Shown here: one piece after another, positions 1 to 27,311 of the stretch | How the letters are laid out: each line of letters begins with the position of its first letter | How positions within the stretch are numbered: position 1 is the first letter of the stretch | Source of the DNA: Crocosphaera subtropica ATCC 51142 | GTDB taxonomy: Bacteria; Cyanobacteriota; Cyanobacteriia; Cyanobacteriales; Microcystaceae | DNA length: 32,000 nt | Direction: 5' to 3' | NCBI RefSeq assembly: GCF_000017845.1 | Contig: NC_010546.1 | Location: 420,001-452,000, forward strand | Translations under genes and position numbers: made by a program | Notes under the pieces: model-generated | What the model saw: the letters and a program-made list of their open reading frames with translations, nothing else | The model's database searches: none | What the model was told of the DNA's origin: nothing

Positions 1-111
1 GCATGGGGAGTCTTTAGGAGTCAACAGGGTATAAGCTTTCTAATTATTGTTATATTAAGAAATATAAAGACAAGAGAGTAAAAAAAAAGACACAATTGAA
101 ACTAAGCATCA

Positions 112-8302: not shown

Positions 8303-9517
8303 TTACGCCAGTTGGTCGAAAATTTTGAACATGGGTAAGTACATAGAGAGGAGAATAACCCCTACCATACCAGCGATCAACACCATCATTAAAGGTTCAA
8401 TAACACTGGTTAACGCTTTGACTGCTTGTTCTACTTCATCCTCATAGAAATCAGCCACTTTCATCATCATAGCATCGAGTTCTCCTGTTTCTTCCCCGAT
8501 ACAAATCATTTGAATAGCTAACTGAGGAAAAACGTTGGCATTTTGTAGGGCTAAACTCATCATACCCCCTTGTTGAATTTCTGCTTGGGCCCCGGCTACG
8601 GCATTAGCAATGACCTTATTTCCTACGGTGTTACAAACAATTTCTAGGGAAGTTAGAATAGGAACCCCAGAACGAGTTAATGTACCAAATACCCGACAAA
8701 AGCGGGCAACCGCAGACTTTTCATTTAAGTCACCAAAGAGGGGCATTTTCAGGAGAAATTTATCAATTTGTAAGCGACCAACTGGGGTTTTATAATATTG
8801 TTTAATGCCAAAAACTAAGGCAAACCCTCCTACAATAGGAATGAGAATTTTCCAACTACGCATAATACCACTGAGATAAAGCATAAATTGCGTTAAAGCT
8901 GGTAATTCTGCCCCTAAATCTTCAAAGATTCCTGCAAAAACAGGAATCAAGAAAATAGTCATGGCAAAGAAAACAATAACTGCCAAAATACCCACCGTAA
9001 CTGGATAAGCCATAGCGGATTTAATTTGGTTTTGGAGTCGGGCCATATCTTCGAGGAGTTTAGCTAAACGGTTTAATACTTCATCGAGTACCCCCCCAGT
9101 TTCTCCAGCTTCGACCATACTGACATAAAGTTGGTCAAAACAGTCTTCGTGTTTTCCTAAAGCTTCTGATAAACTAACCCCTTGTTGCACTTCTGCGCTA
9201 ATAGCTAATAAAGCTTTTTTCAGTTTAGGATTAGTGGCTTGATCGGCTAAAACCCCTAAACAACGAACAATTGCAACCCCTGCATTAATCATTACAGAAA
9301 ATTGACGAGAAAAGATGGCTTTATCTTTAACACTAACGTTATTTAAAGCTCCTCCTATCCCCGAAAAATCAAATTGCATTCCTGCTTCACTAATTTTTCC
9401 AATAGCAGGATATTGCTGTCTAAGCATAGCTCTGGCTTGATCAGGGGAAGTTGCTTGCACTTTTTGCTTAGAGATTTTTCCTTGTAAGTCTTTAACTTGA
9501 GCAATATAAGTAGGCAT
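8303..9517 (-). CDS. pilC: Type IV pilus platform protein PilC (GspF family)
   Basis: 404 aa with two T2SS-F repeats and three hydrophobic TM segments. The family-typical strings FSRQFSVMINAGV and ARFCRVFGTLTRSGVPIL are present. It starts 39 nt downstream of pilT. Confidence 0.95.
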   Translation of the reverse strand: MPTYIAQVKDLQGKISKQKVQATSPDQARAMLRQQYPAIGKISEAGMQFDFSGIGGALNNVSVKDKAIFSRQFSVMINAGVAIVRCLGVLADQATNPKLKKALLAISAEVQQGVSLSEALGKHEDCFDQLYVSMVEAGETGGVLDEVLNRLAKLLEDMARLQNQIKSAMAYPVTVGILAVIVFFAMTIFLIPVFAGIFEDLGAELPALTQFMLYLSGIMRSWKILIPIVGGFALVFGIKQYYKTPVGRLQIDKFLLKMPLFGDLNEKSAVARFCRVFGTLTRSGVPILTSLEIVCNTVGNKVIANAVAGAQAEIQQGGMMSLALQNANVFPQLAIQMICIGEETGELDAMMMKVADFYEDEVEQAVKALTSVIEPLMMVLIAGMVGVILLSMYLPMFKIFDQLA

Positions 9518-9556
9518 TTTCTTTCATATACAATAAACAGTAATTAACAATGTCAT

Positions 9557-10663
9557 TTAACGACGCACTCTACCCTTAACCGCAGCAGTTGCTCCACTAA
9601 TTAATCGTTGTAACTCATCGGGTTTAGCACTTTTAGAAATGGCTTCTTCAAAGGAAACTGCTCCGCTAACAACCAAGTTAGCTAAGGCTTGTTCCATCGT
9701 TTGCATTCCCAGTTTCATTCCTGTTTGGATCGCCGAATAAATTTGACCAGCTTTCCCTTCTCGCATTAGGTTAGCAATGGCAGGGGTTACAATCATAATT
9801 TCTTGCGCCATCGCCCGACCAAATTCACCAGGCTTCGGGTTCTTTTTCTTCGCTAAACATTGACTAAAAACAGCGATTAAAGAGTTAGATAACATCGCCC
9901 GAATTTGAGCCTGTTGATTAGCAGGAAATACGTCAACAATACGGTCAATGGTACCGGCTGCTGAATTGGTGTGTAACGTTCCAAAAACTAAGTGTCCTGT
10001 TTCTGCTGCGGTGATGGCTAAACTAATGGTTTCTAAGTCTCGCATTTCCCCAACTAAAATGATGTCCGGATCTTCCCGTAAGGAGGCTTTTAAGGCATTG
10101 GCAAAGGACTTGGTGTCTTCTCCTTTTTGTCGTTGATGAAAGAGGCTTTTAACATTAGGAAAAACGTATTCAATCGGATCTTCAACCGTTAAAATATGCT
10201 CTTGTCGAGTACGATTAATTAAGTCTAAAATCGCTGCTAAGGTGGTGGTTTTACCCGATCCGGTTTGTCCCGTCACCAACACCAAACCCCGTGGTCGTTC
10301 AGCCATTTCTCGTACAATATTGGGCAGACCTAACTGTTCAAAATTAGGAATTTTAGAAGATAAAGCCCGTAAACAAGCAGCATAACACCCCCGTTCTTTA
10401 TAAACATTCACCCGAAATCGTGCCAACCCTTTAACCCCATAGGAACAGTCTAATTCCCAGTTTTGTTCTAACTCCTTTCGTTGAGTATTATTGAGCATAC
10501 TGAAAATTAATTTTTGACTTTCTTGAGGAGAAAGGGGTTCTTCATCAATGGGGGCTAGTTTCCCACTAATGCGAAAATAAATCGGCGCACCGGCTTGAAT
10601 GTGCATATCGGAACCCCCCATTTCCACAAGTTGTTCCATTAAGTCTTCAATCATCATATCCAT
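9557..10663 (-). CDS. pilT: Type IV pilus retraction ATPase PilT
   Basis: 368 aa. Walker A GQTGSGKTT, Walker B DPDIILVGEMRD, His box TGHLVFGTLHTNSA, and a PilT signature helix AIANLMREGK (AIRNLIRE type). Confidence 0.95.
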   Translation of the reverse strand: MDMMIEDLMEQLVEMGGSDMHIQAGAPIYFRISGKLAPIDEEPLSPQESQKLIFSMLNNTQRKELEQNWELDCSYGVKGLARFRVNVYKERGCYAACLRALSSKIPNFEQLGLPNIVREMAERPRGLVLVTGQTGSGKTTTLAAILDLINRTRQEHILTVEDPIEYVFPNVKSLFHQRQKGEDTKSFANALKASLREDPDIILVGEMRDLETISLAITAAETGHLVFGTLHTNSAAGTIDRIVDVFPANQQAQIRAMLSNSLIAVFSQCLAKKKNPKPGEFGRAMAQEIMIVTPAIANLMREGKAGQIYSAIQTGMKLGMQTMEQALANLVVSGAVSFEEAISKSAKPDELQRLISGATAAVKGRVRR

Positions 10664-10699
10664 TAGATTTTGCTCCTTAAAATTGAATGAGGTTAGTAA

Positions 10700-12733
10700 T
10701 TAAGTAAATCGAGGAGTCATACAATAGGGACAGTCCATCCACTCCGGTTCAAGTCCTGCATGACAGGTTTTACACTCAAGGGAACTCTTGCGCTTGGCTT
10801 TTAATTCTGCTTCGAGTCCCGTATCTGTAAACGTCACCCGTTCCACTTCTTCAAGGGTGGTATGACCTTCTTGAACCAGTTGTAAACTGTAAGCAAGGAT
10901 GGTGATCATTCCTTCTTCGACAGCTGCTTCCTTAATGCGATCAGTGGTTGCTCCTTCGTTAATAAGGCTTTGAATCCGTTCGGTATTACGCATCACTTCA
11001 TAAACCCCAACCCGTCCCTTATAGCCACTACCGCCACATTTTTCGCACAGGGTACCATTTTGTTTGGCTTCAGTAATTTCGTCTGCGGTTAATTTATTCG
11101 CCTTATAAATAGTCATTTCATCATCATTAGAAGCCGACAAGCCAAAACGGGCTAATTCGGCTTTAGTAGGATGATAAGCAACACGACATTCACTACATAC
11201 CCGACGCATTAACCGTTGCGCTAACACCCCTAATAACGCTCCAGAAATCATAAAGGGTTCAACCCCCATTTCATCGAGACGAGCAACCGCTCCTGGTGCA
11301 TCGTTGGTGTGTAGGGTGGTTAAAACTAAGTGTCCTGTTAAGGCTGCTTCAATAGCGGTTTTTGCTGTTTCTACGTCCCTGGTTTCCCCCACCAGGATAA
11401 CGTCGGGATCTTGTCGCATGAATGCCCGTAAAATAGAGGCGAAGTTCATGCCTTTTTCTCGAATCACCTGCACCTGAGTAATACCGGGTAAAGAATATTC
11501 GATAGGATCTTCGGCAGTGCTAATATTGACCCCCGGATTATTTCTTTCAGCTAAGACAGAATACAAACTGGTAGATTTACCCGAACCCGTTGGTCCAGTG
11601 ACGAGAAAGAGGCCAAACGGACGACTCGCCAAGTCTCGTACAATTTGTAAGGTTTCTTGGTTGGTAATGAGTTTATCTAAGCCTAATTGAGTGGCCGAGT
11701 TATCTAAGATCCGTAAACAGACTTTTTCTCCATACCGACTGGGTAAGGTATTAACCCGAAAATCCACTTTTCGACCTTGATAAATGCGTCGAATCTTACC
11801 ATCTTGAGGAAGACGACGTTCGGCAATATCGAGGTCCGCCATAATTTTAAACCGTGCTACTACCGCCGGGGTGACTTTTCGGGGTAGGGGATCAAAGGCT
11901 TGTTGCAGTACCCCATCTTTACGGAAACGAATTCTTAAGGTTTCTTCTTGGGGTTCAACATGAATGTCGGAAGTGCCTTCTTGGAGAGCTTTGGCGAGGA
12001 TTTTATTGACTAAGTTAATAATGGGTGCTTGATCAGCATCATTGGAGTCTAAGGCATCGTGACTTTCATCTTCGGCATCAGAGATGCTGGCATCTAGGTT
12101 ACCAACGATGGCTGTCAGATCAGCCATTTTATTCATGGCCGCCTCTTGTTTGAGACGTTCATTTTCTGCATCAATCTCCCCTTGAAGTTCATGATACTGT
12201 TCTAATAAGCGATCATAATCTTCTTGGGTAATGACCATGCGCCGTAACTCTAGGTTTTTCGCCCTCAAAATACGGTTTAAGTCATCTTGGGCTGCTAGGT
12301 TATCGGGGTCAACCATCGCCACTAACACGGAAGGGGGTTCCCCGCCATGTTGAGATAAAGGTAAAATTCTATGGCGACGACAAATATCAAAAGAAATTAA
12401 TGAATTGATTAATTCAGCCATCTGGCGATCCGCGACAGGAGAGACTTCGGGATCGATAGAGTCGACACCATAAAGGATTTTCAGTTCAAATAAATGATGT
12501 TTTTTATATTGTCGTAATAAATCGGGGGATAAGGGTTCCCCAGTCATCACCTGTAACACTTCAGTTAAAGGACGACCGCTTTTACGGGTTTCGACTAGGG
12601 CTTGTTTCATCTGATCCGGGCCTACATAACCCGCTTCGATCAGTTTGTTGCCAAAGGGTGAAAAGTAATTACGCAGGGCAACCGCCCGACTGCGTTTGGA
12701 AGAAGACAAATTGGAAGAAGACAAAGAGGACAT
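10700..12733 (-). CDS. pilB: Type IV pilus extension ATPase PilB (GspE family) with an extra C-terminal Cys4 tail
   Basis: 677 aa. N-terminal GspE-N/MshEN-like domain (FGNKLIEAGYVGPDQMKQALVE), Walker A GPTGSGKST, Walker B DPDVILVGETRD, His box TGHLVLTTLHTNDA, and the family tetracysteine CSEC...CEKC. There is an additional terminal CKTC-x10-CPYC. Confidence 0.95.
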   Translation of the reverse strand: MSSLSSSNLSSSKRSRAVALRNYFSPFGNKLIEAGYVGPDQMKQALVETRKSGRPLTEVLQVMTGEPLSPDLLRQYKKHHLFELKILYGVDSIDPEVSPVADRQMAELINSLISFDICRRHRILPLSQHGGEPPSVLVAMVDPDNLAAQDDLNRILRAKNLELRRMVITQEDYDRLLEQYHELQGEIDAENERLKQEAAMNKMADLTAIVGNLDASISDAEDESHDALDSNDADQAPIINLVNKILAKALQEGTSDIHVEPQEETLRIRFRKDGVLQQAFDPLPRKVTPAVVARFKIMADLDIAERRLPQDGKIRRIYQGRKVDFRVNTLPSRYGEKVCLRILDNSATQLGLDKLITNQETLQIVRDLASRPFGLFLVTGPTGSGKSTSLYSVLAERNNPGVNISTAEDPIEYSLPGITQVQVIREKGMNFASILRAFMRQDPDVILVGETRDVETAKTAIEAALTGHLVLTTLHTNDAPGAVARLDEMGVEPFMISGALLGVLAQRLMRRVCSECRVAYHPTKAELARFGLSASNDDEMTIYKANKLTADEITEAKQNGTLCEKCGGSGYKGRVGVYEVMRNTERIQSLINEGATTDRIKEAAVEEGMITILAYSLQLVQEGHTTLEEVERVTFTDTGLEAELKAKRKSSLECKTCHAGLEPEWMDCPYCMTPRFT

Positions 12734-12813
12734 AAGGCAGTAGTTATAAGCTGCTTACCTCGTTATTATTCCCAAAGCTGTGATCGAAATTACCATCTTA
12801 GAAAAAAATATTT

Positions 12814-13008
12814 TTAACCAACAATCACATAGGCGCACCGCAAAGCGGATCTCTCCGAGATCGCTGTTGTTAGAAAAATTGTTTCTTTTTGTTTAAAAAT
12901 AAATTCACTATAATCAGCGATGTTATCCAGTCCAATTAAATTGAGTACAATTTCACTTGTTATCCAAACAGAGGTTTGTATCAGTAGTTTTTTCCAAGAA
13001 ATTTTCAT
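12814..13008 (-). CDS. Candidate small protein (64 aa) in the kaiC-pilB spacer
   Basis: The ORF is co-oriented with kaiC and pilB, and AGGGA lies about 9 nt upstream of the ATG. The N-terminal half looks protein-like (MKISWKKLLIQTSVWITSEIVLNLIGLDNIADYSEFIF). The C-terminal half runs through short GC hairpins. There is no independent support. Confidence 0.3.
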   Translation of the reverse strand: MKISWKKLLIQTSVWITSEIVLNLIGLDNIADYSEFIFKQKETIFLTTAISERSALRCAYVIVG

Positions 13009-13191
13009 TGTTTTATCCCTACCATCAGACCTATTATCGGAATTGCTTACACTTTACGGTAGCTTCAATATGGGGATTATGTCAGTCCCAAAACTATTAG
13101 AATTTTAATCGATTTCTTCTTTTATTTTTTAAGATTAAAATAGAAACAAAAAGAAATTACGGTAAAAATAGCCTAAGTTAATCTATTCATG

Positions 13192-13226
13192 AAAAAAAGG
13201 GATGACTGATGTCAATCCCTTTTTTA
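13192..13226 (-). terminator. Intrinsic terminator after kaiC (bidirectional type)
   Basis: The stem is AAGGGAT-GAC / GTC-(A)-ATCCCTT with loop TGAT. It is flanked by A7 on the plus-strand 5' side and T6 on the 3' side. On the minus strand it begins about 25 nt after the kaiC stop and is followed by T7. Confidence 0.75.
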
Positions 13227-13247
13227 CAAAATTTGTCAATGTCTCAA

Positions 13248-14807
13248 TTACTCTTCTGTTTTATCTTTTACCCCTCGAACAATACGGGATAATTCGCTTT
13301 TCTCATCTACCGTAATGCGACTGGGAGAACCACTAATAATCCGTTCGTAATTACGGAAGGAATCTTGAATGATAGGACCATCTTGATTGATCATGTATTC
13401 TCGAATGCCTTTATCATGCCATGATCCTCGCATTTTAAACACATTAATCGCCCGTGACATTTCTCCACGAATTTCTACATATTGCAACATTAAAATAGTG
13501 TCTGTAATGGTAGAAATATGGGATTCAGTGATAGAGTGGGCCCCCATAAATTGGTCAGTTGTATTGGTAAAGAACCCAGTAATTTCTTCTTGTTTAGCGT
13601 ATCCTGTCACTCCAATCACGAATTGACGGAACGCATTATTAGTAACCCCTCTAGCTAAAGCAGATAAAGAATCAATAGCAATTCTAGAAGGTTTGAATTC
13701 CGAAATTTCTGACTTAATAATTTGTAAATGGTCTTCAAGACCAGCAGATTCGGGATAGGTACATAATAGTTTTAAGAGTCCTTTTCTCTCCATTTCTTCA
13801 AAGTCAATACCCCAAGAAAAGGCATTCCGAGATAATTGGGCCCTAGACTCTTCGTAGGCGAATAAAATTGCTCTTTCTCCTTGACGACAACCCTCTTCTA
13901 AAAACTTACTCACTAATAAAGTTTTGCCCGTTCCAGTTGCTCCTGTGGCTAAAATAATAGAGTCTTTAAAGAACCCTCCCCCACACATTTCATCTAAGGT
14001 TTCAACACCCGAAGAAATTCGAGCATTGGATGATCGTTGTGTTAATCTCATCGCCCCCAATGGGAAGATATTAATGCCATCATTGGTAATAGTAAAAGGA
14101 TATTCTCCTTTCATGTGGGTTGTTCCCCGTAACTTGAGAATTTCAATGGTACGACGACGACGTTCCCCTTCCAATACATTGCGGAGGATAAGAACATTAT
14201 CAGAAACGAATTCTTCGACTCCAAAACGAGCAATTTGTCCATATTCTTCTACCCGTTCTGTGGTTAAAATCGAGGTAACCCCTAACTGTTTTAAACGGGC
14301 AACCAGGCGAAAAATTTCCCGTCTCACCACAGATGCAGCATCGTATTGTTGAAAAACTGCAGTCACAGAATCAATCGAGACTAGCTTAGCTTTGTATTTA
14401 TGAATAGCGTATTGTATCCGTTCAATTAAAGCGGACAAATCAAAATTTCCTACCACTTCTTGTCCTTCGGGATCAGGGGACGCATCCAAAATAAACAATT
14501 GACCTTCATCGATTAATTTTTGTAAATCCCAACCAAAACTATAGGCATTTTCAATAATATCATGGGGGGATTCCTCAAAGGTAACAAATAGTCCAGGATA
14601 ATCAAAATATTTAATACCATGATATAAAAATTGCACAGCTAAAAGGGTTTTTCCTGTTCCCGATGTTCCACTGGCTAATGTTGTTCTTCCTAAAGGTAAT
14701 CCTCCATGGGTAATTTCGTCTAATCCTTCAATCATTGTCCGAATTTTGCGAACACCTTTAGGGGCTAATGGTTGTGGTTGATTTTCACGGGGAAGAGGTT
14801 GATTCAT
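13248..14807 (-). CDS. kaiC: Circadian clock protein KaiC
   Basis: 519 aa with duplicated RecA-like halves. Walker A motifs GTSGTGKT and GATGTGKT, catalytic EE pairs (FVTFEES, LFAYEES), and the phosphosite segment HISTITDTILMLQYVEIRGEMSRAINVFKMRGSWHDKGIREY. A C-terminal tail is present. Confidence 0.98.
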   Translation of the reverse strand: MNQPLPRENQPQPLAPKGVRKIRTMIEGLDEITHGGLPLGRTTLASGTSGTGKTLLAVQFLYHGIKYFDYPGLFVTFEESPHDIIENAYSFGWDLQKLIDEGQLFILDASPDPEGQEVVGNFDLSALIERIQYAIHKYKAKLVSIDSVTAVFQQYDAASVVRREIFRLVARLKQLGVTSILTTERVEEYGQIARFGVEEFVSDNVLILRNVLEGERRRRTIEILKLRGTTHMKGEYPFTITNDGINIFPLGAMRLTQRSSNARISSGVETLDEMCGGGFFKDSIILATGATGTGKTLLVSKFLEEGCRQGERAILFAYEESRAQLSRNAFSWGIDFEEMERKGLLKLLCTYPESAGLEDHLQIIKSEISEFKPSRIAIDSLSALARGVTNNAFRQFVIGVTGYAKQEEITGFFTNTTDQFMGAHSITESHISTITDTILMLQYVEIRGEMSRAINVFKMRGSWHDKGIREYMINQDGPIIQDSFRNYERIISGSPSRITVDEKSELSRIVRGVKDKTEE

Positions 14808-14899
14808 GACTGCTTTATAATCGTTTTATAATTAACTTAAAAGTGTGATAGTTTATGGAAAATTGAAAGCGAAACCTTGAATCGAATCGGACTATTTTT

Positions 14900-15220
14900 T
14901 TAGGGATCGTTTTCCCGTTCTTTGATTTCTTCATAGAGAAGATCCAAGCCAATTAAGACCTTTTCCCTATCGGAAAGATCCCCAATAATTTTACGGACAG
15001 GAGGGGGTAAAATTTTAGCTAAGGTTGGGGTAGCTAAAATTTTATCTTCCTCGGCCAGTTGTGGATTTTTCAAAACATCAATAACTTTCAAGGCATACAC
15101 CCCTTTAAATTCATCTTCGAGAATATTTTTTAAGGTTTTTAAAGCTCGCACGGAATTAGGGGTATTACCAGCGACGTAGAGTTTGAGAACATAGGTTTTT
15201 TTGAAGTCAATCATGGCCAT
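14900..15220 (-). CDS. kaiB: Circadian clock protein KaiB
   Basis: 106 aa. The sequence [90 protein letters not shown] is canonical KaiB. The ATG at 15214 is an alternative start. Confidence 0.97.
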
Positions 15221-15306
15221 CTATAAAGGAGGATCATCTGAAAACATATCTAGGGTTTAAGCACAATAAGATTGATCTTAGTAATATTGTATAATGTTTG
15301 ACTACT

Positions 15307-16203
15307 TTAATCGATTTGATTTAATAAATCAAAAAGTAAATCCCCTCTGGGAATGCAACGGCGATACATTTCTCCCAAATGAGCCAAAATGTCAATAATG
15401 GTTAAGCGATAGTCTAAAAGAATTTCTTCACTTCGTCCTTCTAATTTCAGTTGCTGAGAAAATTCGTCCATCAATTCCATATGAATTTCTAACACCCGAG
15501 AAACGGAAATATCGGCGAAGAAAGCTTGATTAACAAATTGATCAATAGCTTGATTTACCTCTGAATCTTCGTCAAAATAATTTAAAATTATTTCTCGATA
15601 ATTTGCCATTAATTCTTTCAGTAATTCTCGTTTATCCTCTGGAGAAAGATTACGATAAAAATACTTAGGATTGCGCTTATAATAAACTCCCAAATAACCT
15701 AATCTTTCTTTTAGTTTTTCGGCTAAACGACGCTGTTGCAGGAGCAAAAAACTTTGGTTTTTTTCTGTACCGATGTCCCGTTGAGAAGACAGGGATTGAT
15801 CCGTTAGAAAACAACTCGGTCCTAGATGTAAAAACTTGGTAATGGCACGATCAATGGTTACTTGAATCTCATCCAATTCCTTAACCCGATAACGCACTTC
15901 AGCACTATGATATAAAAACGTGGGAGGTTCAACATTGTCCGAAGATTCTACCTTGTCCTCAAAAATAATAACGGGTACGAGGGTTCCTTGTTCATAGAGT
16001 TGATTGAATAGGGGGAGAATAGAGGGTTCCTGTTTAACAATCAGACAATCTATGGTTTCACTATGATCTTCCAAGAAAGGCACCAAGTCTTCGAGTTGAT
16101 CGATAATATGTAAACGATAGCGATCGCCACTCAGATGATGGGTCAATAACTGGGTGAGATGTTCATCGCTGCTATAAAGACAAATTGAGAGTCGGGTTTG
16201 CAA
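15307..16203 (-). CDS. kaiA: Circadian clock protein KaiA (full length)
   Basis: 298 aa. N-terminal pseudo-receiver plus the C-terminal KaiA domain VLEIHMELMDEFSQQLKLEGRSEEILLDYRLTIIDILAHLGEMYRR. Confidence 0.96.
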   Translation of the reverse strand: MQTRLSICLYSSDEHLTQLLTHHLSGDRYRLHIIDQLEDLVPFLEDHSETIDCLIVKQEPSILPLFNQLYEQGTLVPVIIFEDKVESSDNVEPPTFLYHSAEVRYRVKELDEIQVTIDRAITKFLHLGPSCFLTDQSLSSQRDIGTEKNQSFLLLQQRRLAEKLKERLGYLGVYYKRNPKYFYRNLSPEDKRELLKELMANYREIILNYFDEDSEVNQAIDQFVNQAFFADISVSRVLEIHMELMDEFSQQLKLEGRSEEILLDYRLTIIDILAHLGEMYRRCIPRGDLLFDLLNQID

Positions 16204-20957: not shown

Positions 20958-21356
20958 CTAACAGATATGGCCACTCAATACCTCTTGAGCTAAATTACAA
21001 GTTAAGGGACAAGCAGCGTAAATAGAAGTGTGAGAGGGAGTTGCTTCGCCGTGCAGCCATCTCAACCAATGAACATCTTGGGGATGAATTCCTTTAACAG
21101 TTAGTAGTGCTGCTCCCAAGAAAACCACTAATAAATTAACACCAATCAAGGAACCAACCACTAATAAAACAGCACTTACCGGTAAAACGGATTGTAAAAC
21201 AACTGATGCTAAAGCCCCAAAAGTTGCCATTAAAACAACCAGGGGAAACCCAACGACTAATAAACAAACGATTAAAGTAAAACTCCAAACTAAGAAGCTC
21301 TTAACGAACGTTAAAGAGTCAACTTTACCTAATTCGGTTTTTTGTACAATTTCCAT
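20958..21356 (-). CDS. Hypothetical integral membrane protein
   Basis: 132 aa with about three hydrophobic helices (FLVWSFTLIVCLLVVGFPLVVLMATFGALASVVL..., LLVVGSLIGVNLLVVFLGAALL). It has a Cys/His/Trp-rich C-terminal tail (HWLRWLHGEATPSHTSIYAACPLTCNLAQEVLSGHIC). No family recognised. Confidence 0.6.
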   Translation of the reverse strand: MEIVQKTELGKVDSLTFVKSFLVWSFTLIVCLLVVGFPLVVLMATFGALASVVLQSVLPVSAVLLVVGSLIGVNLLVVFLGAALLTVKGIHPQDVHWLRWLHGEATPSHTSIYAACPLTCNLAQEVLSGHIC

Positions 21357-21845: not shown

Positions 21846-23189
21846 ATGACCCAGTCTCAACGCCCCTCCTTACCCCCTTTACCCCCTCCTCCCATCCCTC
21901 CTGTTAACGACTTTCAAGAAGCCAGCACGGACATGATGGAGATAGCAAAAGCATCAGAAAATGATGGAGCAACCCAGTTTATTCCCGCTTCTTCCATCAC
22001 CACCGAGTCACAAAGTTCGGCCAAACTAGCACAGGCTCCAACCGTCCCTAAACCCCCTATTGAGTCAGCAATACCGGCACCACCCCCCTTACCGACAACA
22101 CCCCCTAGAGGTTTTGGTCGTTCTCCTGGTCAACCCACTTTAGCCGAGTTAGTTCGTCATGCCTTTGATGAAGGGTTTTCTGATATTCACTTAGGGGTAG
22201 GAGAAAAACCCCGAATGCGCGATCGCGGAGAAATGGTGATTTTAGAATATCCAGACATCGACGAAAACACCTTTATGAGTTGGTTAAGGGAAATTCTCAA
22301 AGAAGACGAAATTCAACGCTTTAAAAAAGAATTAGAATTCGATGGGGCAACCCAGTACGACTTTGCCAGGGTTCGGATCAACATTTTCGATAGTTTACGG
22401 GGACCGGCGATGGTTCTGCGTCTCATTCCCCTGAAAATCTTGACCATGGAACAGTTACGCTTACCCATGATCTTTAAAGATATTTCCGATGCTCATAAAG
22501 GGTTAATTCTGGTCACAGGGCCGACTGGTTCAGGTAAATCTACCACTATGGCCGCTATGGTGGACTACATTAACAAAGAACATCCTAAACATATCATTAC
22601 CATTGAAGATCCGGTGGAATTTGTTCACCAAAGTCGTCGCTCTTTAATTAAACAAAGAGAAGTGGGGATGCACACCCTGAAGTTTGATAATGCTCTCAAA
22701 GCAGCCTTACGGGAAGATCCTGATATCATTCTAGTGGGGGAAATGCGGGACAAAGAAACGGTGAATACCGCCCTCAAAGCAGCCCAAACCGGTCACTTAG
22801 TCATGGGAACCCTCCATACCAATAGTGCGGTGAAAACCCTAGAACGGATTTTAAGCTTATATAATGCTGAAGAACGGGAAGCCATGCGGGTGGCGATCGC
22901 AGAATCTTTAGTGGCTATTATTGCTCAAGGGTTGTGTCGTACAACGGACGGAAAACGGGCTGCTTATCACGATATTTTGATCAATACAGAAACCATCAAA
23001 GATTATATTATCCAAGGGAAAAACGATGAGATTCTCGAATTAATGAAGGATGGTGAATTCGATGGGATGATTACCACCAACCAAGCCTTATTTAATCTCT
23101 ATCAAGAGGGACGCATTACTGAAGAAACGGCTTTAGAATTATCCCCAACCCCCAATGAAATTGCTATGATGTTAAGGGGTCGAATCTAG
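21846..23189 (+). CDS. pilT2: PilT-family ATPase paralogue (PilT2-like) with a proline-rich N-terminal extension
   Basis: 447 aa. Walker A GPTGSGKST, Walker B DPDIILVGEMRD, His box TGHLVMGTLHTNSA. Residues 1-97 are Pro/Ser/Thr-rich low complexity (PSLPPLPPPPIPP, PAPPPLPTTPP). The PilT signature helix is divergent (TIKDYIIQGK). AAGGAAG lies 4 nt upstream of the ATG. Confidence 0.9.
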   Translation: MTQSQRPSLPPLPPPPIPPVNDFQEASTDMMEIAKASENDGATQFIPASSITTESQSSAKLAQAPTVPKPPIESAIPAPPPLPTTPPRGFGRSPGQPTLAELVRHAFDEGFSDIHLGVGEKPRMRDRGEMVILEYPDIDENTFMSWLREILKEDEIQRFKKELEFDGATQYDFARVRINIFDSLRGPAMVLRLIPLKILTMEQLRLPMIFKDISDAHKGLILVTGPTGSGKSTTMAAMVDYINKEHPKHIITIEDPVEFVHQSRRSLIKQREVGMHTLKFDNALKAALREDPDIILVGEMRDKETVNTALKAAQTGHLVMGTLHTNSAVKTLERILSLYNAEEREAMRVAIAESLVAIIAQGLCRTTDGKRAAYHDILINTETIKDYIIQGKNDEILELMKDGEFDGMITTNQALFNLYQEGRITEETALELSPTPNEIAMMLRGRI

Positions 23190-23288
23190 AAAAAACCATA
23201 AAGAAATCAGGCTGAAGGATAAAGATGGGTTATAAAGAAACTAAGTCTTCTTTTATCCCATCTGTTATTCCTCTCCAAAATAGCGAAC

Positions 23289-24050
23289 ATGGCCGAAACA
23301 ACAAGGGTTGTACCGGAGTTGTTTAAGGGTATCGCCCTTTTTACCCCAGGTGGTGATCTCGTTTATTGTGTCGATAACAACAAACAAGTCCATTGGCATT
23401 CTCAATTATGCCTAGTTTTACAGGAATTATTAAAGTTACCAGAACCCCCTCATTTCCTGGTTCCTGGTTACACGGCAACCATTGATCGTTGGTTTTGTAC
23501 CAGAGAGAAAAGGGTCAAAACAGTTGCTGAGGTTTATCCTGCCGTTCGTCGGTACGAACCGTTATTAAATGTTCTTTTTAATGTGAAGGACGTGGTTTGG
23601 ACAACAGCCAATTGGCAAGAAGAGGTTTGTGATCCAGTTGTCATTGAAACCTATCGTTCTCAGTTTCCTCAACTTTGGGAAAACCATGATTTGCTAGTGC
23701 GTTTAGATGAACGTTGGGAACAGGAGCTAAAAACTCAATTTAATCCTGTCGAGACTCAGAAAAAAGATGAATTTGAAACCAATCAAGGCTATATTTTACG
23801 TCTTTTTGTTTCCGGTCATCACCCTTCCACTAAGCAAACGTTAAAAAAGATCCATCATCTCCTCGAAACCCAGTTAAGTCATCCTTATACCTTAAAAGTT
23901 ATCGATATTGCTAAACACCCAGAAATGGCCGAAACCCACCATGTTTCTGCAACGCCTACCTTGGTGCGTGTTTGGCCGAAACCGACAAGACGGATTGTCG
24001 GAGAATTGACAGATTTATCTAGGGTTCTACAACTGATCACCACAAATTAA
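23289..24050 (+). CDS. Elongated KaiB-domain protein (unassigned ~166-aa N-terminal region plus C-terminal KaiB/thioredoxin-like domain)
   Basis: 253 aa. Residues 167-253 (YILRLFVSGHHPSTKQTLKKIHHLLETQLSHPYTLKVIDIAKHPEMAETHHVSATPTLVRVWPKPTRRIVGELTDLSRVLQLI) align without gaps to the KaiB at 14900-15220. By hand, 34 of 83 positions are identical. Confidence 0.88.
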   Translation: MAETTRVVPELFKGIALFTPGGDLVYCVDNNKQVHWHSQLCLVLQELLKLPEPPHFLVPGYTATIDRWFCTREKRVKTVAEVYPAVRRYEPLLNVLFNVKDVVWTTANWQEEVCDPVVIETYRSQFPQLWENHDLLVRLDERWEQELKTQFNPVETQKKDEFETNQGYILRLFVSGHHPSTKQTLKKIHHLLETQLSHPYTLKVIDIAKHPEMAETHHVSATPTLVRVWPKPTRRIVGELTDLSRVLQLITTN

Positions 24051-24112
24051 CTAAGTCAACTTACAGTTCTTAGTTATCAATTATTAGTAACACCTTATCT
24101 AACCATTGTCTG

Positions 24113-24433
24113 ATGGATACTCTCAATTTGGCAACAATAGCCACCTTAATTTACGGAATTTTATTGCTTCTCGGTGGCATTATGGGTTATGTTACCGCTA
24201 AGAGCAAACCTTCTTTAATTTCTGGCGTTCTTAGTGGTTTGCTCTTATTACTGAGTGCTTTTTTTCAATGGCAGCAAATATCAGTTGGGCTGATTTTGGC
24301 TCAAATCTTAACTCTTATTCTTGCCATCGTCTTTGGAATCAGATTCTGGAAAACCCGAAAATTTATGCCAGCCGGGTTAATGTTAGGGATCAGTGTGGCT
24401 ATGTTGACAATTTTGTTCCAAACAACCAGTTAA
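24113..24433 (+). CDS. TMEM14/UPF0136-like small membrane protein
   Basis: 106 aa with four hydrophobic helices. The N-terminal string IYGILLLLGGIMGYVTAKSKPSLISG is typical of the TMEM14 family. Confidence 0.75.
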   Translation: MDTLNLATIATLIYGILLLLGGIMGYVTAKSKPSLISGVLSGLLLLLSAFFQWQQISVGLILAQILTLILAIVFGIRFWKTRKFMPAGLMLGISVAMLTILFQTTS

Positions 24434-24819
24434 GCCAAGGTTTCGGGACAATAACCTAATCCTCTGGTAAATTGTTGACGGAATGCCTCAATATCACTGC
24501 TATCAGGGGATCCATGAGAAACAATAGCCACTTGATAACGACTCATGACATCGATAGGAGATTGACCGGTTTCGAGACTCCAGAACACCATTTGTAAGCG
24601 AATTTCCAATTCGTAAGGAATACCTAATTCATTCATAAAGGCCTTAAAATTCCCGTGTTCTTCTGGAGTTAAGGGTTGTTTAAATTTAATTTTGATAATC
24701 CAACCATTAATTTGATGAATCACAGTCATCGAGCAAAGGGATGAATCATACTTTCGTTGTAGATATTCAATCACCCGTAAAGTCAAACTTGCATTGGCTA
24801 AAAAATAAATATAGTCCAT
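24430..24819 (-). CDS. Hypothetical protein
   Basis: 129-aa ORF that converges on the TMEM14-like gene with a 4-nt overlap. It is divergent from queA. No family recognised. Confidence 0.5.
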   Translation of the reverse strand: MDYIYFLANASLTLRVIEYLQRKYDSSLCSMTVIHQINGWIIKIKFKQPLTPEEHGNFKAFMNELGIPYELEIRLQMVFWSLETGQSPIDVMSRYQVAIVSHGSPDSSDIEAFRQQFTRGLGYCPETLA

Positions 24820-25094: not shown

Positions 25095-26180
25095 ATGAGT
25101 AGTGATCATTTATTATCCAGTTACGATTATGATTTACCTCCAGAATTAATTGCCCAAAATCCCATGATTCCTAGGGATCATTCGCGGTTATTAGTGATTA
25201 ATTCTCCCACCACCCATATTCATAGCGTTTTTCGGGATTTACCTAAGTGGTTATTACCAGGGGATTTATTGGTGTTTAATAATACTCGTGTCATTCCTGC
25301 ACGACTTTATGGAAAAAAAACCACAGGTGCGCCTGTAGAAATTTTATTATTAGAAGAAAAAGAGCCTTTTTGTTGGTTGGCGTTAGTTAAACCTGGAAAA
25401 CGGTTTAAAATTGGCAGCGAAATTCATTTTCCATTAGATCACAATGATGATAAAGAAGATATGTTTCTAGCAGCTACTGTTTTAGATAGGGATGAAGAAA
25501 CCGGGGGAAGATTACTCAAGTTTAACGTTGATTCTCTTGATTTATTTTGGAAAAAAATCGAAGAAATTGGTCAAATTCCTTTCCCTCCTTATGTTACTGA
25601 ATCTGAAGCTGATTCGTCTCAATATCAAACGATTTATGCTCAAAAACCTGGGGCTGTCGCTGCACCCACCGCCGGACTTCATTTTACAGATGAACTCTTA
25701 GACAATTTACAGCACAAAAGAATTAATCAAGCTTATATTACGTTACACGTCGGGTTAGGTACATTTCGTCCCGTTGATATGGAAAATATCAAAGAACATA
25801 AGATGCACCAGGAATGGATAGAAGTTCCTGATGTAACCGTTGAAAAAATCAAAGAAACAAAAGCCAATGGGGGTCGAGTCATCGCCGTGGGAACCACCGT
25901 AGTAAGAGCCTTAGAAGGAGCAGCAAAAGCAGCAGAAATGGAAGGGAAAAAAGACTTAAAGGCTTTTAGAGGCAAAACAGATATTTTTATTTATCCTGGA
26001 TATTCTTGGCGTGTTATTGATGGCATGATTACCAATTTTCACTTACCAAAATCCAGTTTGTTGATGTTAGTCAGTGCTTTAATTGGGCGAGAAAGATTAT
26101 TAGATTTATATCAAATAGCGATTAAAGAAAAGTATCGCTTTTATTCTTTTGGAGATGGAATGTTAATTTTATTGTCCTGA
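25095..26180 (+). CDS. queA: S-adenosylmethionine:tRNA ribosyltransferase-isomerase
   Basis: 361 aa. YDYDLPPELIAQNPMIPRDHSRLLV, AAPTAGLHFT, VGTTVVRALE and ITNFHLPKSSLLMLVSA are QueA hallmarks. Confidence 0.95.
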   Translation: MSSDHLLSSYDYDLPPELIAQNPMIPRDHSRLLVINSPTTHIHSVFRDLPKWLLPGDLLVFNNTRVIPARLYGKKTTGAPVEILLLEEKEPFCWLALVKPGKRFKIGSEIHFPLDHNDDKEDMFLAATVLDRDEETGGRLLKFNVDSLDLFWKKIEEIGQIPFPPYVTESEADSSQYQTIYAQKPGAVAAPTAGLHFTDELLDNLQHKRINQAYITLHVGLGTFRPVDMENIKEHKMHQEWIEVPDVTVEKIKETKANGGRVIAVGTTVVRALEGAAKAAEMEGKKDLKAFRGKTDIFIYPGYSWRVIDGMITNFHLPKSSLLMLVSALIGRERLLDLYQIAIKEKYRFYSFGDGMLILLS

Positions 26181-27311
26181 TGCCATTAACATCACCCGAA
26201 ACCCAATTTGACTAACCCCAACTGCTTGAGGATGATAGGCATAACGGGAAGCACAACGACAATGATAAGCATCTTCGTCCCAGGAACCTCCTCTTAAAAC
26301 ACGACGAGTTTCCTGTTGAGACGATGAGCGGGGTTTTCCTGAAGTAGAAGCGTTATCATAGCTAGAATACCAAGCATCAGCGCACCATTCCCAAACGTTA
26401 CCATGTAAATCATATAACCCGAATCCATTGGGATAAAATGCGCTTACCGATGTGGTTTCTTGACGATAAAGACTAGAACTTTCCCCTGCATACAAACGTT
26501 TCGCCATATAATTAGCCAAATCCCCCGTTAACGTCGGTCCAAAATAAAATGGACTGGTGGTTTCTCCACGACAGGCGTATTCCCATTGTGCCTCACTAGG
26601 CAGTTGATAGGGGCGTTGGGTGTATTGAGAGAGGCGATCGCAAAATTCCACTGCATCTTCCCAGGAAAGAGACTCTACCGGGCGATCGCTTCCCTTGAAA
26701 CAAGAAGGGTCAACGCCTAAATCTCGGTTAACTTTGGGATATTGAGCGACAATTTCCCATTGCTTTTGGGTGATAGGAAATTTTCCCAAGAAAAACCCTT
26801 CTAAGGTTACAGTATGCTGGGGTTGCTCACATACTTGAGATCCTGGTTCATCAGAAGTTGAACCCATCACAAAGGTTCCCCCAGGAATGTAGATCATTTC
26901 TAAGATGATCCCGTCTCCCAACTCTTCTTTAAAACATTGAGACTCACCCTTAAGCCGTTTTAAAATGGTTCCTGTTTCATCGATAATTGGCCTTTCAAAG
27001 AAAAATTCTTGTAGAGGAGGGGTTTTAAAGGATAAGGTAGGTTGAGACTTTTTCTCTTTCTCTTTAGTCTGAATCACATTAGAAGATTTATCGAGGGTGG
27101 GAGAAGATTCTAAACGTTCAAGCCGTTTTTCAACATTTACCAGTCTTTCTTCAATTGAAGAAGATGGTTTTTCTTTTTCATCTGTTTCTAGATATTGAGA
27201 TAAAGCTTGAGTGATTACCTTAGACTTAGGAAGACCAACAGCATTAGTATGAGCTAATAATTTTTCGTATAATTTCGGCGGTATTCTCACACTAACCTGA
27301 ATATTACTCAT
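26169..27311 (-). CDS. Ribbon-helix-helix domain fused to an FGE-sulfatase (SUMF1/EgtB/PvdO-type) domain
   Basis: 380 aa. N-terminus MSNIQVSVRIPPKLYEKLLAHTNAVGLPKSKVITQALSQYLE has the beta-alpha-alpha RHH pattern. A short coiled segment follows (IEERLVNVEKRLERLE). From about residue 135 the FGE-sulfatase motifs appear: LEMIYIPGGTFVMGS, QPQHTVTLEGFFLGKFPITQKQW, PVESLSWEDAVEFC, LPSEAQWEYACRG, YDLHGNVWEWC and LRGGSW. Confidence 0.85.
   Translation of the reverse strand: MSNIQVSVRIPPKLYEKLLAHTNAVGLPKSKVITQALSQYLETDEKEKPSSSIEERLVNVEKRLERLESSPTLDKSSNVIQTKEKEKKSQPTLSFKTPPLQEFFFERPIIDETGTILKRLKGESQCFKEELGDGIILEMIYIPGGTFVMGSTSDEPGSQVCEQPQHTVTLEGFFLGKFPITQKQWEIVAQYPKVNRDLGVDPSCFKGSDRPVESLSWEDAVEFCDRLSQYTQRPYQLPSEAQWEYACRGETTSPFYFGPTLTGDLANYMAKRLYAGESSSLYRQETTSVSAFYPNGFGLYDLHGNVWEWCADAWYSSYDNASTSGKPRSSSQQETRRVLRGGSWDEDAYHCRCASRYAYHPQAVGVSQIGFRVMLMASGQ

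Follow-up and report, generated by a model that had tools for sequence, protein, structure and literature searches.

The window analyzed here is a stretch of 32,000 nucleotides from Crocosphaera subtropica (Cyanothece) ATCC 51142. Besides the canonical pilBTC and kaiABC clusters, it carries a second gene of the PilT family, pilT2, which is followed on the same strand by the gene for an elongated KaiB protein (long kaiB) and flanked by two genes for membrane proteins (Table 1). All the features described in an earlier, sequence-only reading of the window are present where that reading placed them. The long kaiB product is 100% identical to the 'circadian clock protein' of ATCC 51142, and the published qPCR primers for cce_0435 match 23851-23870 and 23941-23960; the protein itself is not new, being cce_0435 ('kaiB3') of the published elongated KaiB or KaiB-4 class. 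The pilT2 product goes under the database name 'twitching motility protein'. No kaiC paralogue lies near the pair, as had been noted: kaiC1, 8.5 kb off and within kaiABC, is the one kaiC that turned up in the window. An exact-protein look-up of the kaiABC-pilBTC adjacency returned only short contigs, with the gene order of the window and probably from the same strain.

Table 1. Positions of the genes and features discussed, numbered from the first nucleotide of the window.
Feature	Position	Strand	Remarks
pilBTC	8303-12733		canonical PilT (PilT1) at 9557-10663
kaiC1	13248-14807		within the canonical kaiABC cluster
KaiB1	14900-15220		canonical KaiB of the kaiABC oscillator
orf132	20958-21356	-	small membrane protein, divergently transcribed; 3 predicted transmembrane helices
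pilT2	21846-23189	+	447 aa; cce_0434 (named by gene order); ACB49785; PilT/PilU-family hexameric ATPase paralogue
PilT2 N-terminal extension (residues 1-95)	21846-22130	+	proline-rich (23% proline), presumably disordered
PilT2 ATPase core (residues 96-447)		+	
Spacer pilT2-long kaiB	23190-23288	+	99 nt; 12-bp hairpin at ~23209-23259, without U-run
Elongated KaiB	23289-24050	+	253 aa; cce_0435, annotated 'kaiB3'; KaiB-4 class
Elongated KaiB, N-domain (residues 9-140)	23313-23708	+	
Elongated KaiB, variable linker (residues 141-166)	23709-23786	+	
Elongated KaiB, KaiB domain (residues 167-253)	23787-24047	+	
TMEM14/UPF0136 membrane protein	24113-24433	+	PF03647, E 1.1e-26; starts 62 nt past long kaiB

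PilT2 scored 475.6 bits against the PilT/PilU model TIGR01420 (cut-off 319.1) and also matched Pfam PF00437. Its Walker A (GPTGSGKST), Asp (EDPVE), Walker B (DIILVGEMRD) and His (TGHLVMGTLHTNS) boxes are intact and align with those of PilT1, to which it is 39% identical, bearing out the earlier claim of an intact PilT-family ATPase distinct from the canonical one. The AIRNLIRE C-terminal helix, the motif that defines the canonical retraction PilT, is degenerate in PilT2 (TIKDYIIQ, against AIANLMRE in PilT1), as it is in proteobacterial PilU. The 95-aa N-terminal extension is kept in 64 orthologues, with the short motifs MTxSQxP, PPxPPPPP, TQ(T/F)(L/M) and a terminal R/S-PGQ. A proline-rich extension of this kind is the published hallmark of cyanobacterial PilT2, and the protein, which has it and is a second paralogue of PilT whose gene lies outside pilBTC, falls into that subgroup. 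PilT2 has been described in Synechocystis 6803 and S. elongatus 7942, for both of which only short KaiBs are described, and no partner protein is reported for it in the literature. The published phenotypes include mildly reduced piliation or motility and inverted phototaxis; the latter, which the sequence-only reading had cited for Synechocystis pilT2, is now questioned in the literature, with a secondary mutation as a possible cause.

Within the 253-aa protein, the Pfam KaiB family (PF07689) covers residues 171-249 only (E 8.7e-26; 89.9 bits against a gathering threshold of 27). This domain aligns without gaps to KaiB1 of the window, as had been seen by hand, although the identities come to 34/80 (43%) and not 34/83. 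Long KaiB stays below both NCBIfam KaiB equivalogs (75.9 against a cut-off of 145.3 bits for TIGR02654 and 76.5 against 110 bits for NF006798), on which KaiB1 scores 186 and 207 bits, respectively, and its gene does not have the place next to kaiC that marks a circadian kaiB. Full-length homologues with 49-88% identity occur across cyanobacteria, in keeping with the elongated KaiB or KaiB-4 class. These proteins range from ~240 to 390 aa; the linker varies in length and both domains are conserved.

The first ~166 residues had matched nothing in the sequence-only reading, and the same holds for residues 1-166 in Pfam (even at E <= 5), PDB sequences and PDB folds. Modeled alone, the N-domain reached a pLDDT of 81 and a pTM of 0.76, and its best Foldseek match was an ADF-H/cofilin domain (E 0.044, TM 0.35). 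Among 1.84 billion representative proteins it was found in only 48 clusters, 47 of this family and one a spurious match to a repeat protein; judged by sequence, the domain is restricted to cyanobacteria. The literature describes its homology and function as unknown. A Roadblock/LC7/longin (MglB-like) fold, prompted by the motif FKGIALFTPGGDLVY, was unsupported, with no significant PDB fold match and no Pfam match. Nor was there a case for a metal or redox site, as only W36, H37 and C41 are invariant in the most divergent members and H55 and C114 vary. Short matches that might suggest N-domain-only proteins appear to be fragmented or frameshifted; downstream of one of them, P0128, a 76-aa KaiB ORF stands on its own.

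In the AF2 model of long KaiB, the pLDDT is ~90 for the N-domain, <50 for the linker and only ~70 for the KaiB domain. The predicted topology of the latter, beta-alpha-beta-alpha-beta-beta-alpha, is that of the fold-switched, thioredoxin-like state, to our knowledge the only KaiB conformation that binds the KaiC CI ring. Its best Foldseek matches were fold-switched KaiB on KaiC CI (5N8Y, 5JWR, 5JWO), KaiB-TV-4 (8UBH) and the SasA N-domain, with TM scores of 0.66-0.86, normalized to the target. Sixteen of the 18 residues that are invariant in the KaiB domain of the family are identical in KaiB1, and the shared ones include the beta2 strand YxLKVID as well as P/A/E of the alpha2 helix, which touches the B-loop of KaiC. 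Of the residues for the ground state (T. elongatus numbering), K58, G89 and D91 have given way in the family to Q/H, hydrophobic and variable residues, respectively, and those of the lateral ring contacts (R23, K26, E84 and D91) are not kept either, both as in SasA; the roles of these residues come from the literature, and the mapping of positions is ours. The domain thus does not have the metamorphic fold-switch residues and lateral contacts of a circadian-oscillator KaiB. Published NMR work found the homologous KaiB-4 domain to be a stable fold-switched monomer, and the long-KaiB domain is likewise predicted to be permanently fold-switched rather than metamorphic. Because this predicted conformation is the KaiC-binding one and resembles the SasA N-domain, the earlier suggestion of a KaiB-fold docking adaptor is a reasonable one.

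Across cyanobacteria, a PilT-family gene lies directly upstream of long kaiB, on the same strand, at 107 of 128 non-redundant loci (84%), these being the genome and metagenome loci with duplicates removed; by set, the counts are 64/74 genome loci and 51/63 metagenome loci. The pair occurs in at least seven major cyanobacterial groups (Chroococcales, Pleurocapsales, Microcystis, Nostocales, Coleofasciculaceae, Leptolyngbyaceae and Spirulina), and pilT2, wherever it was found upstream, was always on the strand of long kaiB. An adjacency limited to very close relatives would have spoken against the sequence-only reading, and the pair was instead found in most orders sampled. We conclude that pilT2 and the elongated kaiB are an ancient cyanobacterial gene pair, conserved in order and strand. 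It is this synteny that is new: in the literature searched, we found no paper that names pilT2 together with KaiB or that mentions a conserved pilT2 neighbor. A search with the 8UBH sequence at a tight E-value threshold, for the locus of the T. vestitus protein studied by NMR, returned only the 86-aa construct. No KaiC-family gene lies beside the pair in the window or in the annotated neighborhoods listed. A functional linkage between PilT2 and long KaiB is well supported, and the two products most likely act together. Their adjacency in most lineages sampled suggests joint work; it does not by itself imply that the circadian clock is involved.

An adjacent pilT2 is absent at ~16% of loci. At five of them it is cleanly missing between orf132 and long kaiB, and several free-living lineages have lost pilT2 beside a retained long kaiB. 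Diatom endosymbionts keep long kaiB next to a pilT2 that has decayed to a remnant, which means that in some lineages at least long KaiB has a role without PilT2; the literature that we examined on these endosymbionts makes no mention of kai genes. The partnership is facultative, not obligate.

The flanking genes are less constant. The TMEM14 ORF, which scored 93.7 bits against PF03647 (threshold 24.8), does follow on the same strand at the distance that had been given, but the conserved unit does not include it: it is kept downstream of long kaiB at 12 of 77 loci, all of them Chroococcales/Pleurocapsales relatives. We therefore rejected it as part of the module and regard it as a lineage-specific neighbor and an internal control for the synteny. 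Upstream, orf132 has neither a Pfam nor an NCBIfam match; its 864 homologues (124 aa) are every one named 'hypothetical', and its tail W..W..CPLTC is invariant in the alignment. It lies upstream of pilT2 at 74 of 108 non-redundant loci and often stays beside long kaiB where pilT2 is gone. As an obligate third member it was downgraded after three look-ups of orf132 homologues showed neither pilT2 nor kaiB, with orf132 beside an Epimerase_2 gene at two of these three loci. Orf132 is probably a frequent neighbor and not a core part of the pair.

The spacer between the two genes has the 99 nt that had been reported, and our scan predicted neither a terminator-like nor a promoter-like site in it. 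It folds with an MFE of -23.1 kcal/mol (z = -1.97). The earlier statement that it holds no stem-loop plus T-run is true only in the strict sense, because an imperfect hairpin without a T-run is present; this hairpin is kept in seven Crocosphaera-clade spacers, with a compensatory change in 2 of 12 pairs. At orthologous genome loci, spacer length ranges from 18 to 484 nt, with 156 nt as the median. There is no gap but an overlap of 14 nt in one distant lineage, and again a gap of 99 nt in another distant member (47% identity). Metagenome spacers reach 705 nt, and that of one lineage 1.2 kb; with such lengths, separate promoters are therefore possible. Co-transcription of pilT2 and the elongated kaiB is most likely. 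In ATCC 51142, the kaiB3 transcript has been reported to oscillate under constant light.

Of the original interpretation, the widely kept adjacency stands and the adaptor idea is reasonable; the phototaxis phenotype is in doubt. As a tentative explanation, which we hold to be possible but somewhat short of probable, we propose a SasA-like tethering adaptor between PilT2 and the ring of a hexameric ATPase, for which KaiC is the likeliest candidate. The elongated KaiB would be this adaptor, made of the orphan N-domain, a linker of highly variable length and a KaiB domain fixed in the fold-switched state. Its KaiB domain would dock non-cooperatively on the ring, as SasA does, with the CI ring of KaiC in its post-hydrolysis (dusk/night) state as the best candidate. 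PilT2 would be engaged by the N-domain, possibly via the conserved proline-rich motifs of the PilT2 extension, and PilT2-dependent pilus activity would be tuned post-translationally by clock or energy state. Because the N-domain has no recognizable fold relative, its binding to the proline motifs is purely conjectural. Although we only infer the contact of long KaiB with KaiC or PilT2, as well as the physiological output, a candidate clock-to-pilus coupling is plausible.

A bolder version, which we consider decidedly unlikely, is that the elongated KaiB bridges the KaiC and PilT2 hexamers and so provides a direct post-translational Kai output on a motor ATPase, parallel to the transcriptional SasA/CikA-RpaA route, that gates type IV pilus behavior according to the time of day in most filamentous cyanobacteria and many unicellular ones. 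Such a bridge, if real, would have been missed because the two model strains have, by published descriptions, short KaiBs only.

It is conceivable, though rather unlikely, that the module works without the clock: the permanently fold-switched KaiB domain would be re-used as a generic binder of hexameric RecA-type rings and would dock on the PilT2 hexamer, making long KaiB a dedicated regulator or localization factor of PilT2 with no role for KaiC. The gene neighborhood indicates PilT2 and not KaiC as the partner, with no kaiC adjoining the pair in the window or the listed neighborhoods; the lateral contacts for a cooperative KaiB ring on KaiC are lost, long KaiB falls below the KaiB equivalog cut-offs, and a KaiB-like fold is known outside clocks, e.g., in Legionella Lpp1115 (4KUN). 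Nevertheless, the residues best conserved with KaiB1 include the alpha2 helix for the KaiC-specific B-loop, to which PilT has no known equivalent, and long KaiB survives where pilT2 has decayed.

We also think it unlikely that long KaiB is a clock modulator or output adaptor for a target other than PilT2, for example by competing with KaiB1, SasA or CikA on KaiC or by acting through the neighboring membrane protein, and that its place behind pilT2 reflects shared regulation or historical operon structure. This would fit the retention of long kaiB without pilT2 in the genome-reduced diatom endosymbionts and the free-living lineages, often with orf132 still beside it, as well as the reports of PilT2 from model strains with short KaiBs only and the published phylogeny, which sets the KaiB-4 domain near clock KaiB-1. 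However, order and strand are kept at 84% of loci and across orders although other neighbors change, which would be difficult to account for if the two genes were not functionally tied, the overlapping genes of one lineage suggest translational coupling, and orf132 is often away from the pair, beside an epimerase gene. A functionally meaningless residue of synteny is highly improbable: spacers can be long and each gene can occur without the other (pilT2 without long kaiB according to the literature), but the flanking genes turn over (TMEM14 12/77 and orf132 74/108, against 107/128 for PilT), the strand is always shared and the taxa span very deep cyanobacterial divergences.

The pair gives each of two widespread cyanobacterial proteins without an assigned function, PilT2 and the elongated KaiB, a candidate partner. 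If the KaiB domain docks on KaiC, as in the tethering explanation that we prefer, the result would be a non-transcriptional clock output on a molecular motor, of which we found none described for the Kai system in the literature searched. If it docks on PilT2 instead, the fold-switched KaiB fold would have been re-used to regulate an ATPase of the secretion superfamily.

Among known systems, the published elongated KaiB or KaiB-4 class (Dvornyk; Schmelling et al. 2017, PMC5520375; Wayment-Steele et al. 2023, PMC10808063; PDB 8UBH) shares with long KaiB an N-terminal extension of ~150 aa, conserved and confined to cyanobacteria, ahead of a KaiB domain nearest to KaiB1. In the PDB, the sequence that matches long KaiB best is 8UBH (E 9.9e-21), and the fold-switched state is predicted here too; what differs is the conserved pilT2 neighbor, which the searched literature on the class does not mention. 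Canonical KaiB1 has the core residues, alpha2 helix and beta2 strand in common with long KaiB, whereas long KaiB has an extra N-domain, no adjacent kaiC, and replacements at K58/G89/D91 and at the ring contacts. With SasA (6X61, 1T4Y) it shares a KaiB-like thioredoxin-fold domain in a constitutively KaiC-binding fold, a linker to another domain, and the absence of the KaiB lateral-ring residues, which in SasA goes with non-cooperative binding. Unlike SasA, long KaiB carries its KaiB fold at the C-terminus and has an orphan alpha/beta domain in place of a histidine kinase (Pfam found no HisKA or HATPase domain), and its KaiB domain is much nearer in sequence to KaiB1 than SasA is (in the PDB search, KaiB chains matched with E ~1e-19 and SasA chains with 3e-5); long KaiB thus at most functions like SasA and is not a member of that family. 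Like Synechocystis sll1533 and Nostoc punctiforme PilT2, PilT2 of the window is a second paralogue of PilT, rich in proline at the N-terminus and with its ATPase motifs intact. In archaea, KaiC-family ATPases are associated with type-IV-filament systems, KaiC/KaiB-like genes occur in type IV pilus loci, and the KaiC-like ArlH (FlaH) interacts with the archaellum motor ATPase ArlI. Although the arrangements are not homologous, as a KaiC-like component binds the motor there and a KaiB-fold protein is encoded beside a PilT paralogue here, ArlH-ArlI is a precedent for a Kai-family protein partnered with the hexameric ATPase of a type-IV filament.

The 253-aa ORF is 100% identical to a 'circadian clock protein' of ATCC 51142 (Crocosphaera subtropica, formerly Cyanothece sp.), and because the qPCR primers published for cce_0435 ('kaiB3') match exactly within it, we identify it as cce_0435, one of four kaiB genes counted for this strain in the literature. 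The 447-aa PilT-family ATPase is ACB49785, annotated as 'twitching motility protein' and, by gene order, cce_0434. The TMEM14 ORF, which starts 62 nt downstream of long kaiB as the sequence-only reading had stated, is ACB49787. The local name 'kaiB3' is misleading: by published description the elongated variants fall with KaiB1, and Synechocystis KaiB3, the partner of KaiC3, is separate from the elongated grouping (Schmelling et al. 2017, PMC5520375). In that work the 'elongated KaiB' proteins (~250 aa) occur mainly in Oscillatoriophycideae and Nostocales and carry an N-terminal extension of ~150 aa that is found only in cyanobacteria, is highly conserved and contains no domain that could be recognised; their KaiB part is closest to KaiB1. 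For an elongated protein termed KaiB-4, prediction favoured the fold-switched state, and NMR of the Thermosynechococcus vestitus protein (PDB 8UBH) confirmed this state in a stable monomer (Wayment-Steele et al. 2023, PMC10808063). The long KaiB class and PilT2 are both already known.

Features of the pilT2-long kaiB region and of the clock and pilus genes in the window
Feature	Position	Strand	Remark
kaiA, kaiB1, kaiC1, pilB, pilT1, pilC	8303-16203	-	one co-directional array
pilT1 (canonical)	9557-10663	-	
orf132	20958-21356	-	membrane protein
pilT2	21846-23189	+	447 aa
Spacer	23190-23288		99 nt
Spacer hairpin	~23209-23259		12 bp, no U-run
Long kaiB	23289-24050	+	253 aa
N-domain of long KaiB	residues about 9-140		extremely conserved (alignments of 20 and 60 homologues)
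KaiB domain of long KaiB (Pfam)	residues 171-249		
cce_0435 qPCR primers	23851-23870; 23941-23960		exact placement
TMEM14	24113-24433	+	
orf129 (129 aa)	24430-24819	-	no Pfam match
queA	25095-26180	+	3' end overlaps FGE-sulfatase gene 3' end by 12 nt
FGE-sulfatase (formylglycine-generating enzyme-like) domain protein	26169-27311	-	convergent with queA

A profile scan with the N-terminal domain (N-domain) of long KaiB, using one genome per GTDB species, found relatives encoded in at least 580 stretches. Among the best 80 of these, 74 had at least 1.5 kb of upstream sequence, and a full-length PilT2 orthologue lay directly upstream on the same strand in 64 of the 74, with a median gap of 156 nt (range 18-484 nt). 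These loci come from Aphanothecaceae, Microcystis, Pleurocapsales/Xenococcaceae, Coleofasciculaceae, Leptolyngbyaceae, Spirulina and others, as well as from the Nostocales (Nostoc, Fischerella, Calothrix, Rivularia and Richelia). In a second sample, metagenome contigs ranked on a divergent family member (matches 49-62% identical to the window long KaiB), PilT2 was upstream in 51/63 loci; the union of both samples, after removal of 11 duplicate pairs, gives 107/128 (84%). The flanks of the same loci served as an internal control, and TMEM14 was downstream in just 12/77. The neighbourhood check proposed with the sequence-only reading thus shows that the pairing is clearly not confined to close relatives, because the gene order recurs across cyanobacterial groups. 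Our literature search found no paper naming pilT2 together with KaiB, and among publications on KaiB and PilT no listed title or abstract describes the pair; in the literature searched, the term 'elongated KaiB' occurs in just two works. The conserved pairing appears to be unreported. We consider it very probable that the two genes are functionally linked.

More divergent members are in line with this, at differing distances: beside a 55%-identical long KaiB (GCA_015295885.1), pilT2 and the N-domain ORF share 14 nt of overlap; pilT2 lies 99 nt upstream of a 47%-identical one and 1.2 kb upstream of a 40%-identical one (JGI metagenomes), and is missing beside a 42%-identical one, whose neighbour is a LuxR-type response regulator. 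In GCA_015295885.1 the long KaiB itself is encoded by two overlapping ORFs, one of 213 aa for the N-domain and one of 76 aa for KaiB, owing either to a frameshift or to faulty assembly. In the 40%-identical JGI lineage, the most divergent, long kaiB has ComFB, an M23 peptidase and Hfq as its neighbours, the first and last of which have links to type IV pilus function in cyanobacteria. A contig labelled as a Candidatus Gracilibacteria MAG (JAAUUT010000045.1) carries pilT2, long kaiB, TMEM14, orf129 and queA as a cluster at 59-90% protein identity, and is probably a misbinned cyanobacterial-type contig. Its pilT2 match falls into two parts, suggestive of a frameshift.

The association has limits. 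In the diatom endosymbionts of Rhopalodia and Epithemia, decay has left only a C-terminal remnant of pilT2, where no gene is called, and long kaiB persists together with the gene for the small membrane protein (orf124). Five other loci lack pilT2 between the divergent gene for the membrane protein and long kaiB, and several loci carry unrelated genes upstream. Conversely, PilT2 is reported from Synechocystis 6803 and S. elongatus 7942, which are described with short KaiBs only (Schmelling et al. 2017, PMC5520375); this would explain why the link went unnoticed. Because loci or strains carry one gene without the other, each protein has at least some function independent of its neighbour.

The PilT-family assignment of the upstream ORF was borne out (TIGR01420, 475.6 bits against a cut-off of 319.1), as were its intact Walker A/B and His boxes, to which we add an intact Asp box, and its distinctness from PilT1 (39% identity). 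The C-terminal helix motif of PilT is AIRNLIRE; this helix is degenerate in pilT2, reading TIKDYIIQ versus AIANLMRE in PilT1. An N-terminal extension rich in proline, described in two reviews as the defining mark of cyanobacterial PilT2, is present and comprises 95 residues. Across 64 orthologues the extension ranges from 36 to 120 aa and keeps four short motifs: MTxSQxP at the start, a run PPxPPPPP, TQ(T/F)(L/M) in the centre and R/S-PGQ at the end. Disordered regions that carry docking motifs typically show this pattern. As stated in the sequence-only reading, inverted phototaxis has been reported for the Synechocystis pilT2 mutant, but the literature also raises a secondary mutation as the possible cause. 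Published work on Nostoc punctiforme describes mildly reduced motility or piliation for PilT2 and places pilT2 in the SigJ hormogonium regulon, and a PilU-like role has been suggested.

A consensus scan of the spacer between the two genes yielded no promoter-like and no terminator-like site. The earlier statement that the spacer lacks a stem-loop followed by a T-run holds in that no terminator is apparent, but a hairpin without a U-run is present. It is kept in seven Crocosphaera-clade spacers with small covariation (2/12 pairs), and might act in RNA processing or stability, or attenuate in part.

Alignments of 20 and 60 full-length homologues of long KaiB show an N-domain with the motifs FKGIALFTPGGD, WH-x3-C, EPPHFLVPGYTAT and FPQLW, a linker whose variable length gives family members of ~240 to 390 aa, and a conserved KaiB domain. 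As had been proposed, likeness to KaiB is confined to the C-terminal part and the alignment with KaiB1 is gap-free, but the identity is 34/80 rather than 34/83. In the AlphaFold2 model the linker is disordered, and the KaiB domain is predicted to be in the fold-switched, thioredoxin-like state, having its beta-alpha-beta-alpha-beta-beta-alpha topology. The leading Foldseek matches in the PDB were fold-switched KaiB bound to KaiC or KaiC CI (5N8Y, 5JWR, 5JWO), followed by 8UBH, Legionella Lpp1115 and the CI-bound SasA N-domain (6X61); 8UBH is also the best PDB sequence match (E 9.9e-21). Of 18 residues invariant in the family KaiB domain, 16 are identical in KaiB1. Among these are Pro, Ala and Glu in alpha2, the helix that with the KaiC B-loop forms the published KaiB-KaiC interface, and also the beta2 strand, the surface reported to be used by KaiA and CikA. 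By our own position mapping, K58, G89 and D91, which according to the literature keep KaiB in its ground state, are replaced, as are the charged residues of cooperative ring assembly, R23, K26, E84 and D91.

The N-domain is modelled (AlphaFold2 pLDDT ~90) as a beta-beta-alpha-beta-beta-alpha unit plus extra elements. That it resembles nothing recognised, as first noted, proved correct for Pfam, PDB sequences and PDB folds: Pfam gave no N-domain match in any of 15 members even at E <= 5, the PDB sequence search gave none, and a structural search with a dedicated model (pLDDT 81, pTM 0.76) gave nothing significant, the best match being an ADF-H domain (E 0.044, TM 0.35). When 1.84 billion representative proteins were searched exhaustively with phmmer, only 48 N-domain clusters came back, 47 of them the long KaiB family and one a spurious repeat-protein match. 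A Roadblock/longin-like assignment is unsupported, with no significant structural neighbour and no Pfam match.

In the window the core clock operon and the pilus motor operon are immediate neighbours (kaiC-pilB gap 514 nt), and the pilT2-kaiB3 pair is only 5.6 kb from this kaiABC-pilBTC array. No such adjacency is known from Synechocystis or Nostoc 7120. Upstream, orf132 is a member of a very conserved cyanobacterial family: membrane proteins of 124 aa that have three transmembrane helices and an invariant W..W..CPLTC tail, and that have neither a Pfam model nor an annotation. It lies divergently to pilT2 in 74/108 loci and elsewhere is paired with a UDP-GlcNAc 2-epimerase-type gene. On a TARA marine contig, which may be UCYN-A-like, its homologue orf123 adjoins queA and the whole pilT2-kaiB-TMEM14-orf129 block is missing. 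The orf129 product accompanies TMEM14 and queA in Chroococcales/Pleurocapsales and, judged from its 95-97% identity among Crocosphaera relatives where long KaiB shows only 77-88%, appears unusually constrained.

The observation that prompted this work is confirmed and its interpretation partly supported. In the best-supported reading, long KaiB would be a tethering adaptor: one end would be a KaiB fold held in the conformation that binds rings, without the contacts for cooperative ring assembly, and the other, carried on a flexible tether, a domain that docks or acts as effector. The gene neighbourhood suggests PilT2 as one partner, and the conserved KaiC-facing helix suggests KaiC CI as the other. 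Published precedents are the archaeal Kai-family protein ArlH acting with the type-IV-filament ATPase ArlI, and KaiC-like genes within archaeal type IV pilus loci; in ATCC 51142, kaiB3 mRNA has been reported to oscillate under constant light. Docking of long KaiB on KaiC is a tentative proposal, a little short of evenly balanced, and the whole KaiC-long KaiB-PilT2 bridge ranges from doubtful to unlikely as it is stated more strictly. One main rival, in which the KaiB fold docks directly on the PilT2 ring and KaiC is uninvolved, would also accommodate the gene pairing; the kept alpha2 residues point instead to KaiC. The other, in which long KaiB is a clock modulator or serves another output and PilT2 is merely a co-expressed neighbour, is consistent with the loci that lack pilT2, and the breadth of the pairing argues against it. 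The conserved pairing makes two long-standing unknowns, long KaiB and PilT2, testable together. As a tethering adaptor, long KaiB would work like SasA, a KaiB-fold adaptor of this kind in which the same cooperative-ring residues are replaced, and would differ from it by its orphan domain and its PilT-paralogue partner.
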